Shown one piece after another: positions 20,238 to 22,538 of a DNA stretch of 64,000 nucleotides (position 1 is its first letter; each line of letters begins with the position of its first letter). The notes below the pieces were generated by a model. That model was given only the letters and a program-made list of their open reading frames with translations. It was not told the origin of the DNA and did no database searches. A program made the position numbers and the translations under genes. Origin of the DNA: a virus. Taxonomy: Duplodnaviria > Heunggongvirae > Uroviricota > Caudoviricetes. Where the stretch lies: IMG/VR virus record IMGVR_UViG_3300042256_000013, positions 192,001-256,000 of that record; one strand, given 5' to 3'.

Positions 20238-21092
20238 ATGAATAAGATGAACCCTTTATCCAAGTATACTAAAGTAGAAGTACTTTACACTAAGCTTGTG
20301 AGTAATAATGTAATTCCTTACCCATCTGGAGTATTGAATAATGAAACAGTTGAATGTGGTATTTGTGCTCGTTCAGCACGTGATGAACTTATGTTTAACA
20401 ATCCAGATGCATTGATTAATGGTGAAGCAGTATCCAGCGTTATTGAAAATTGTGTTCCAAATATTGCTGATGCCCGGAAACTTTATGTACCAGATGTAGA
20501 ATTACTATTGATTGGTATTAAAATTGCAACAAAAGAAACTTCATACAATATTGAAGTTGAATGCCCTAATTGTGGTTATCATGGTGCATTTGAACGTAAT
20601 CTTGAAGCACTACTTGCAAGTGCTGAATTACTGGAAGAACAACCAGAATTGCTTCTTGAAGAAGTTGGTGGTTTACTATTGAAATTTAAACCGCATACAT
20701 GGGAAGAACATTCTGCATTTAGTCAGAAAATGTTTATTGAACAAAAGAAAGCTCGTGGTCTTGAGCAAGCAGAATTATCTGATGAAGAAAAAATGAAGCA
20801 CTTCAGTGCTATTTTCGAAATTATGACTCAATTGAGTTTTGATATGACAGTCGCTAATATCGACTATATTGAAACTGCTGATGGGATTAAAGTATCTGAC
20901 CGTTCATTTATTGCAGAATGGCTTGGACAACAACCAGCATTTGTACTTCGTCAAATTCGTGACAAAGCTGACTTTATTAACAATACTGGTATTAGTCATG
21001 AAATGGATGTTGGATGTTCTGAATGTGGTCATGAATGGACACTGGAGAATCTTCAATTCGATCCTAGCAGTTTTTTCGTACAAGGCTTCTAA
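20238..21092 (+). CDS. baseplate hub assembly / tail chaperone (gp26-like)
   Basis: ARDEL.F.NPDAL..G...VIENCVP, D...LLIGIKIAT, two CxxC motifs and a C-terminal SFF. GGAG RBS before 20238. Confidence 0.75.
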   Translation: MNKMNPLSKYTKVEVLYTKLVSNNVIPYPSGVLNNETVECGICARSARDELMFNNPDALINGEAVSSVIENCVPNIADARKLYVPDVELLLIGIKIATKETSYNIEVECPNCGYHGAFERNLEALLASAELLEEQPELLLEEVGGLLLKFKPHTWEEHSAFSQKMFIEQKKARGLEQAELSDEEKMKHFSAIFEIMTQLSFDMTVANIDYIETADGIKVSDRSFIAEWLGQQPAFVLRQIRDKADFINNTGISHEMDVGCSECGHEWTLENLQFDPSSFFVQGF

Positions 21093-21289
21093 TGGCTGAT
21101 GCTCAAGAAACTAAGCAAGAAATAGCAGACCTACACTTTAATTGTGAAGAGATAAAGAATGGATTATTGGAGGTTTCTGTATATATCTCCAATACGAGCT
21201 ATGAAATGCTCTTGAATATGCCTGTAACAGATCGTGATCTGCTGGTGAAGCAATACAATAAAAAGGTCAAAAAAGAAAACAAGCAATAA
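21092..21289 (+). CDS. gp51-like small baseplate assembly protein (possible frameshift extension)
   Basis: SYEMLLNMPVTDR.LL pattern. TAATG overlap with the upstream stop. Confidence 0.6.
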   Translation: MADAQETKQEIADLHFNCEEIKNGLLEVSVYISNTSYEMLLNMPVTDRDLLVKQYNKKVKKENKQ

Positions 21290-21294
21290 AAATT

Positions 21295-21318
21295 AACCAG
21301 CCTTTGTGCTGGTTTTTT
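21295..21318. terminator. intrinsic terminator, probably bidirectional
   Basis: aaccagc-ctttgt-gctggtt with a T-tract on + and aattttt on -. Confidence 0.75.
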
Positions 21319-21977
21319 GTGTTCTAATTTTCTGTACTGTTTGAGATTTGCCATACTTCGTATGTCAAAGAATTTTCGTTGTTCTGTACTTGCTTTGCTG
21401 CGTACTGATCAACTCAATTCACTAATCTATCTGTACGTTTAACACGATTTATACTGACGAGATTTGGGGAGTTTATCATCCCCCGCTGGGGGAAGGATAT
21501 AAAAAAGTACTAATTAAAGTACTCAATTCTGACGATGATAGTCGTCGTTTATTCGCATCGTAAATTTCTATTTTTCAATAGAACGCAAGCGGGTTGCTCT
21601 GTTTCTCACTATTACGGTCTTATGCAACGGTCATGGGCTTACCATACTCAGTACTAAGTCTATGCGAACAAACTCAGTACCTATTCTTCTGGAATTTTGG
21701 ACGGATCAATATTGTATAAAATATGACCGCAAAATTCTTCTTCAGAAAAATTCCCTTAGCTATTTGGTAGGGGGCGATTCCTATATATCTATCGAGGAAG
21801 TTCTATCAGCTTAGTGAACTTCTTTATAGTGCCGTATTGCCGTGGGTGGTACAAACTATGCCATCTCCTAACGGGTGTCTTCTGCACTTCGAACTGCTTG
21901 AACTTCTCATTGTGCCAATTACATTTTCATCGGCGACTGTTTTTTGTCTACGTGTTCACGCAGCCAAGCAGGGTTGT
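21295..21977 (-). ncRNA. candidate large structured non-coding RNA (~680 nt), family unknown
   Basis: No credible ORF. Own promoter at 21984-22012, a terminator at the far end, and at least 8 hairpins. Confidence 0.6.
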
Positions 21978-21983
21978 CCTATC

Positions 21984-22012
21984 ATTATACCAGATTTTTT
22001 AGAATCGTTCCA
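21984..22012 (-). promoter_or_regulatory. TGGAAC-N17-TATAAT promoter driving the non-coding region
   Basis: gttcca 22007-22012, attata 21984-21989. Confidence 0.75.
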
Positions 22013-22055: not shown

Positions 22056-22538
22056 ATGAAAAGGGAAAGGTTAAAAAATTCGGTTGAGGCTGCCAAATAT
22101 AGGCAGGAATTACTTAAAAAACAAAAAGGATTAGATCCAATCACTAAAGAGAAAGTAACTGATCCAGTACTTGATCATAATCACAAAGGTGAACAAGAGT
22201 GTCGTGCAGTTCTTGATAGAACAGTTAACTCATTTGAAGGTAAAGTACAAAATGCGTTCGATAGATACATTAAGCATTTAACAACTAAAGATTTACCTAC
22301 TGTTTTACGAAATTTAGCAGATTATTATGAACAAGATTATTCTGAGACTAAAATTCATCATACAGCATTAACAATTGATGTTAAAAAGTTCAAAGCATTA
22401 CCGGCTGCACAACAAACTTCAATTCTTGAATCATTTAATGTTGTACCTGAGTCAAATAGTGCTAAACGAGCTAATCAAGCACGTAAATTAATTAAAAGTG
22501 GTCAATTAGATATGACACAAATAAAAAAAGGAGCCTAA
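22056..22538 (+). CDS. recombination endonuclease VII-like (His-Me finger) nuclease
   Basis: Q.G.DPIT...VLDHNH...RAVL...NSFEGKV aligns by eye with T4 gp49 LDHDH...RGLLC..CN..EG. Confidence 0.8.
   Translation: MKRERLKNSVEAAKYRQELLKKQKGLDPITKEKVTDPVLDHNHKGEQECRAVLDRTVNSFEGKVQNAFDRYIKHLTTKDLPTVLRNLADYYEQDYSETKIHHTALTIDVKKFKALPAAQQTSILESFNVVPESNSAKRANQARKLIKSGQLDMTQIKKGA

Follow-up and report, generated by a model that had tools for sequence, protein, structure and literature searches.

The element analysed here lies in a window of 64,000 nucleotides (bases 192,001–256,000) of a complete phage genome of 371,104 bp, whose nearest records, Kaldavass, XbC2, CBB and GAP32, are Rak2-like (CBB/GAP32-like) jumbo phages. 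It is flanked by a baseplate hub gene (gp26-like) with a 65-aa gene (phrog_18291) at 20241–21289 and by the gene for endonuclease VII at 22056–22538. All of these flanking genes are on the plus strand and the element is on the minus strand, against both neighbours, keeping the direction that holds ∼82% of the long-ORF bases genome-wide. On the plus strand, its 5′ part is overlapped by two short ORFs (62 and 69 aa). The end of the baseplate hub ORF overlaps the next ORF by one base (window 21066–21100). An earlier note on this DNA had described the intergenic region as the only long ORF-free gap, but there are nine gaps of at least 450 nt in the genome, three of them copies of the element. Six gaps, of 600–840 nt and without an ATG-started ORF of at least 55 aa, are found at genome positions 14.7, 17.3, 48.6, 79.0, 110.0 and 283.8 kb and are not family copies.

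A phage middle-type promoter, with TGGAAC, a 17-nt spacer and the extended -10 box TGGTATAAT, is present on the minus strand at 21984–22012, as previously read (TGGAAC-N17-TATAAT), and would be expected to start transcription at ∼21977. The window contains five exact copies of this promoter versus 0.03 expected, and a relaxed pattern finds seven, all on the minus strand. All five copies of the element in the genome are preceded by a promoter of their own; across the family, a -10 box lies 109–156 nt upstream of the conserved anchor in nearly every full copy. In CBB, the same promoter class precedes DNA-synthesis genes (PMC5259590). Some copies (genome 359,560–359,596 and its orthologues) carry a short hairpin and a U-run directly after the promoter, which could attenuate transcription.

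The hairpin at 21295–21314, once thought to close the RNA, does fold, but its T-run is on the plus strand, where it forms the intrinsic terminator of the converging baseplate-hub operon; for the minus-strand transcript it would be a weak backstop at most. A same-strand terminator follows the element in 3 of 49 copies and is absent in the remaining 46. All eight hairpins listed inside the gap also fold, and the one at 21652–21679 pairs on the minus strand as claimed (−10.5 kcal/mol versus −1.4 kcal/mol on the plus strand), although those at 21505–21524, 21531–21546 and 21687–21747 vary among homologues. The conserved, co-varying RNA ends at ∼21454, so that its length is ∼525 nt and not ∼680 nt; positions 21453–21347 belong to a different element. 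A large structured minus-strand RNA with a promoter, representing a new family, is supported by covariation and by the fixed position of the promoter in each full copy; its length and 3′ end had been misread.

The structured core, a putative pre-primer RNA, spans 21454–21977 on the minus strand (∼525 nt, z-score −4.3); for the gap as a whole, the fold z-score versus shuffles is −4.9 on the minus strand and −3.0 on the plus strand. In an alignment of 48 non-redundant copies, RNAalifold predicted 75 pairs, 50 of them with compensatory change. A structure built from this alignment has 85 pairs, including three pseudoknots, with 96.3% of the cells paired; changes on both sides occur in 64 of these 85 pairs. 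Slid controls for the 85-pair structure were 36–43% paired, a contrast that is inflated because the structure was derived from the same alignment that was used to score it. The occurrence of up to three to six pair types per position in paralogues that are 60–70% identical would be hard to explain by kinship alone. The core contains 267 G-U cells versus 40 A-C cells, which identifies the minus strand as the RNA strand. Comparison of the sequences supports the view that the element is a real, non-coding, structured minus-strand RNA.

All parts of the core described here are on the minus strand. In the first pseudoknot (21894–21971), positions 21971–21964 pair with the hairpin loop 21901–21894 (94% paired, two-sided change in five of eight pairs). 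The central domain (21828–21888) consists of a co-varying helix, 21888–21884/21832–21828, around an invariant one, 21874–21871/21843–21840, both of them 100% paired. Covariation also supports the region 21553–21681, where the loop (21667–21662) of the hairpin 21681–21650 pairs with 21558–21553 to form the second pseudoknot (100% paired, with frequent two-sided change at four of six pairs) and where the helix of the third, 21628–21624/21597–21593, crosses two others. A weak hairpin followed by six U residues (21501–21523), found in a subset of copies, may act as a pause site or partial terminator. In the C-run/G-run hairpin at 21480–21492, the G-run is invariant and the C side shows only one-sided, C-to-U variation; this invariant G cluster possibly nucleates an R-loop. 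The core has many invariant unpaired bases, and its conservation ends at the motif CGTCA(G/A), at position 21454.

A search of Rfam at gathering and E-value thresholds gave no match for the gap, including to GOLLD, ROOL, OLE, HEARO and ARRPOF, which makes this an uncatalogued family, and ARAGORN found no tRNA or tmRNA in the gap. Group I and II introns, tmRNA and RNase P RNA, of which the earlier note had likewise seen no hallmarks, were rejected, as no model matched and the element carries its own promoter without splitting any gene. The literature searched contained no description of this RNA family or of the replication origin of Rak2-like jumbo phages.

Family searches used a sequence-only model and nhmmer. 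There are five copies in the genome, all on the minus strand, with starts at ∼43.5, 129.6, 214.0, 297.4 and 359.6 kb; they are 61–74% identical and 55–86 kb apart. The element matches 62 phage records, in most of them at four to five places. There are five copies in CBB, Munch and Hallingskeid, four in XaC1 and three in RaK2, which has no copy at the window locus; copies are co-oriented within each genome, and all follow the direction of bulk transcription. Copies in the five-copy phages are spaced more evenly than expected at random (largest-gap P ≤ 0.001), although these layouts share ancestry and therefore are not independent tests of even spacing. Even spacing does not hold in RaK2 (three copies) and XaC1 (four copies), which have gaps of 160–185 kb. 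GC skew follows the coding strand and is uninformative.

No match to the element was found among 72,556 plasmids. Outside phages, it was seen in a single ∼10.7-kb island at ffs, present in 2 of 5,426 Escherichia coli genomes. This island is bounded by a 14-bp repeat and carries an IS3-broken integrase gene, a gene for a 303-aa protein, the RNA element, a DUF4326/DUF488/dual-OB cluster and a resolvase gene, with no recognised Rep gene; for the 303-aa protein as a Rep there is a sub-threshold Pfam hint, and one of its homologues weakly resembles DUF559 nucleases. A related E. coli-type island has the same integrase and 303-aa genes without the RNA, and in a comparable place, on the opposite strand, contains two CTCGTCAG motifs and pas-like runs. 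Loose pattern scans of genomes, metagenomes and viral contigs returned mostly chance matches, the true ones being in Rak2-like phages where the source was known. Four prophage-like pattern matches proved on inspection to be coding DNA, and no real copy was found in 401 genomes of the order containing the Rouxiella record.

The related phage PA5oct (MK797984) has long non-coding elements of its own, in three co-oriented copies (12.9, 76.0 and 246.1 kb) with sigma-70 promoters. Long non-coding RNAs defined by RNA-seq are described for PA5oct (PMC7318152); one of the copies is ncRNA004, which accounts for 0.02–0.08% of phage reads, and the paralogy of the elements does not appear to be noted in that paper. 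The annotated 3′ end of ncRNA004 is ∼30 nt after a C/G hairpin. Another copy is near the baseplate hub gene and converges on it, as in the window. PA5oct shows a related phage transcribing long RNAs from a similar multicopy element, with no homology detected: these RNAs gave no profile match, were not accepted as family members and are therefore treated as possible analogues only.

Near the 3′ end of the core, two direct repeats of 10–11 nt, 48–101 nt apart, flank the C/G hairpin. Box 1 (ATCATCGTCAG, 21529–21539, minus strand) is proposed to be an RNA toehold for the template strand of box 2 (ATCTCGTCAG, 21454–21463, minus strand), which ends the conserved core and is followed by ∼40 AT-rich bases (mean AT content after box 2, 77%), a putative RNA–DNA switch region. 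The boxes co-vary by identity, not by complementarity, at five positions, one of which has T/T in 39 cases or C/C in 27; joint changes occur at the other four, and two of the joint changes fall on bases that are invariant outside RaK2. The mean match between boxes is 9.33 of 10, versus 7.80 in permuted sets (15 distinct types; 0 of 5000 permutations). At the last position, the boxes differ only by a G in box 1 where box 2 has A (three cases versus none); box-1 RNA bound to the box-2 template would then form a G-T wobble.

Identity covariation of this kind is consistent with an RNA that pairs with its template DNA. Gene conversion is disfavoured as its cause because box 1 always carries an extra A and one position matches only loosely. 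Because different box pairs coexist within one genome, binding by a common protein would not oblige each pair to match. A search of the core for a third RNA segment that would pair with both boxes found none that is conserved. The best-supported box change represents only two to three events on the tree, so the evidence from the boxes is good but not deep.

Downstream of the core lies a tail of hairpins of the single-stranded DNA type (21347–21420, minus strand) that resembles primosome or primase signals; it falls in what had been taken for the last ∼130 nt of the 680-nt element. In the window copy, it consists of a long imperfect hairpin (∼21420–21371) and a hairpin with a C-GAA-G triloop (21369–21347). 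Of 49 tails, each taken as the 140 nt after the core, 36 have C-GNA-G triloop hairpins on the RNA strand, as compared with 1 of 49 on the other strand and 0.3 in shuffles. For the pattern (G/A)A-NN-GNA-NN-GA, the corresponding counts are 26 of the 49 tails, 1 and 2.0. The middle base of the loop varies (GAA 20, GGA 10, GTA 6, GCA 1), as do the stems. On the RNA strand, the frequency of GNA triloops is 0.04 per kb in the core versus 5.4 per kb in the tails, and of the seven minus-strand C-GNA-G hairpins in the 31 kb of non-coding DNA of the genome, four fall in tails. All three RaK2 copies, none of which was used to define the motif, have the tail. In the 2.5 kb of ColE1 examined, the (G/A)A-NN-GNA-NN-GA pattern occurs once, on the RNA II strand, at a position that we take to be the primosome assembly site. 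The very stable DNA mini-hairpin is formed by GNA loops alone and is far weaker as RNA; such mini-hairpins occur at phage and plasmid replication priming sites (PMC13037366).

A detached copy of the last GNA hairpin of the tail is found at genome ∼128,560, ∼400 nt downstream of the 129-kb copy. In two paralogues (genome 128,960 and 296,780), the last tail hairpin contains GGAG and extends over the start codon of the gene that follows, for which the element thus appears to double as a leader. RaK2 (NC_019526) has the exact ColE1 pas core (GAGCGTAGCGA) at ∼65.9 and 230.9 kb on the minus strand, in hairpin-rich non-coding regions that lack the RNA and run against the main direction, with direct repeats near the 65.9-kb site; these could possibly be opposite-strand priming sites or a second type of origin.

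Five evenly spaced copies in the same direction, each followed by signals of the single-stranded DNA type, make it most likely that the element starts phage DNA replication. We estimate a probability of roughly 0.6 that each copy is a one-directional, RNA-primed phage replication origin that works like RNA II of ColE1. The earlier note had offered a transcribed replication origin as the main alternative to a large RNA; initiation is most likely the job of this RNA itself and no competitor to it, and a free GOLLD/ROOL-like RNA is less favoured.

In the proposed mechanism, RNA polymerase would start at the conserved promoter and the first ∼500 nt of the transcript would fold into the pseudoknotted structure indicated by covariation. 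As polymerase passes the G-run and box 2, box 1 of the RNA would pair with the template strand of box 2 and block re-closing of the DNA, and a lasting RNA–DNA hybrid, suggested by the identity covariation, would form in the AT-rich stretch beyond. RNase H of the phage or the host would then trim the hybrid to a primer for extension by DNA polymerase. The displaced strand would fold its GNA mini-hairpins and load a helicase or primase, possibly host PriA, since Rak2-like phages lack the T4 loader gp59. The five same-direction copies would split the 371-kb genome into stretches of 55–86 kb. Genes for RNase HI and a DnaB-like helicase are present in the phage; a Pfam search of it found no Pol A-family enzyme and no PriA 3′ domain. 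In CBB, the replisome is T4-like but gp59 is missing (PMC5259590). Several points count against an origin. To our knowledge, known primer RNAs have not been described as so heavily pseudoknotted, and the lack of a match among plasmids is unfavourable because an origin driven by host proteins ought to have spread. The long gaps in RaK2 and XaC1, the small number of independent box changes, the related island without the RNA and the absence of sequence homology to ColE1 are likewise unfavourable.

The best surviving alternative, which we nevertheless consider unlikely, is a free abundant RNA that acts in trans like GOLLD or ROOL, as a scaffold, cage, decoy or anti-defence agent, and is multicopy for dose. 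It would account for the size, the three pseudoknots, the many invariant unpaired bases and the phage-borne distribution; the weak hairpin and U-run after box 1 could release an RNA of ∼480 nt in some copies, and PA5oct provides a related phage with long non-coding RNAs defined by RNA-seq (PMC7318152). However, it does not account for a DNA-type tail confined to one strand, for boxes that co-vary by identity, for copies that are co-oriented and evenly spaced, or for the lack of terminators, and this anatomy favours a cis-acting primer RNA.

Slightly less probable still is a cis-acting R-loop device that serves recombination, fork restart, packaging or genome entry instead of the start of replication. 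Such a device would explain the boxes, tail, orientation and spacing equally well, and the window copy does lie between endonuclease VII/gp46-47 and tail genes, but the remaining four copies sit elsewhere in the genome and it is chiefly at primosome and primase sites that displaced-strand GNA hairpins are known (PMC13037366).

It is very improbable that the element is a cis-regulatory leader of the gene downstream, such as a riboswitch, antiterminator or translational operator: the last hairpin of two paralogues has GGAG and continues into an ATG, and short hairpins resembling terminators lie near the start of some copies, yet no gene follows the window copy on its strand and the downstream genes differ among copies. 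Equally far-fetched is folding of the whole element, core included, as single-stranded DNA that the promoter merely opens, for although covariation cannot surely separate RNA from single-stranded DNA (PMC5737381) and the tail is DNA-like, the core has its 267 G-U cells, almost no GNA triloops on its strand and a promoter in a constant place at its 5′ boundary.

For most of the large ornate RNAs of bacteria, no function is known. If the RNA-primed origin is true, it supplies mapped candidate origins for these phages and a large RNA with a concrete mechanism, as well as a third design of RNA-primed initiation beside those of ColE1 and T4. We would go further only tentatively, at slightly less than even odds, and see here a new class: a large pseudoknotted RNA whose 10-nt guide (box 1) invades its own template at the matching box, in up to five Rep-free origins with primosome hand-over via DNA mini-hairpins, and which has been picked up by small bacterial islands. 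Should the origin fail, the element would still represent a new RNA family of 525 nt, with strong covariation and three pseudoknots.

Among known systems, GOLLD and ROOL (PMC5737381, PMC12286853) are also large, ornate, pseudoknotted and often phage-borne, but the element is not beside tRNAs, has a DNA-type tail and occurs in dispersed co-oriented copies. ARRPOF, GEBRO and PAGEV (PMC5737381) are structured motifs at Rep-independent or otherwise unexplained replication regions, although they are shorter (223–349 nt) and plasmid-borne, and the element matched none of them in Rfam. Phage T4 oriF and oriG (PMC4412123) have a middle-mode promoter, like the element, and would further share with it, as proposed here, several origins per genome and an RNA–DNA hybrid in an easily unwound stretch that serves as primer; the T4-type features at the element are the middle promoter class and the AT-rich stretch. 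A promoter and an unwinding element make up the T4 origins, for which a large conserved RNA fold has not been described, and T4 depends on gp59, absent from CBB.

The closest parallel is with ColE1, in which a ∼550-nt RNA folds, a stretch of rG pairs with a dC stretch of the template to give a lasting hybrid, RNase H cuts, Pol I extends and the displaced strand exposes a PriA site (PMC5043065, PMC4412123, PMC3167613). ColE1/pMB1 (NC_001371) and the element have the same order and scale of parts: a promoter, a folded RNA (∼550 nt in ColE1) with a G-run close to its end, a segment further upstream in the RNA for which pairing with the template near the origin has been proposed and, downstream, what would be a hairpin of the pas type (n′-pas/ssiA) with the same motif pattern on the displaced strand. 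The distance from the RNA II start to the octamer CTCGTCAG, which stands ∼20 nt before the ColE1 origin and recurs at the end of the core (a post hoc match, possibly due to chance), is 535 nt, as compared with 478–634 nt (median about 540) from the -10 box to box 2 across the family. There are also differences. The family profile finds nothing in ColE1; inside the window copy there is no plus-strand promoter for an antisense RNA I, and any antisense -10 match occurs in 17 of 49 cores. Given this lack of homology and of a conserved RNA I promoter, the element, as judged by its sequence, is not a ColE1-family origin. It has three pseudoknots, would pair through two 10-nt boxes in place of a G/C stretch, carries its tail closer (hairpins 40–120 nt after box 2) and is present three to five times per genome in lytic phages that bring a T4-like replisome of their own. 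What the two probably have in common is the way of working, that of ColE1 RNA II with a pas-like site, carried here by a new RNA family.
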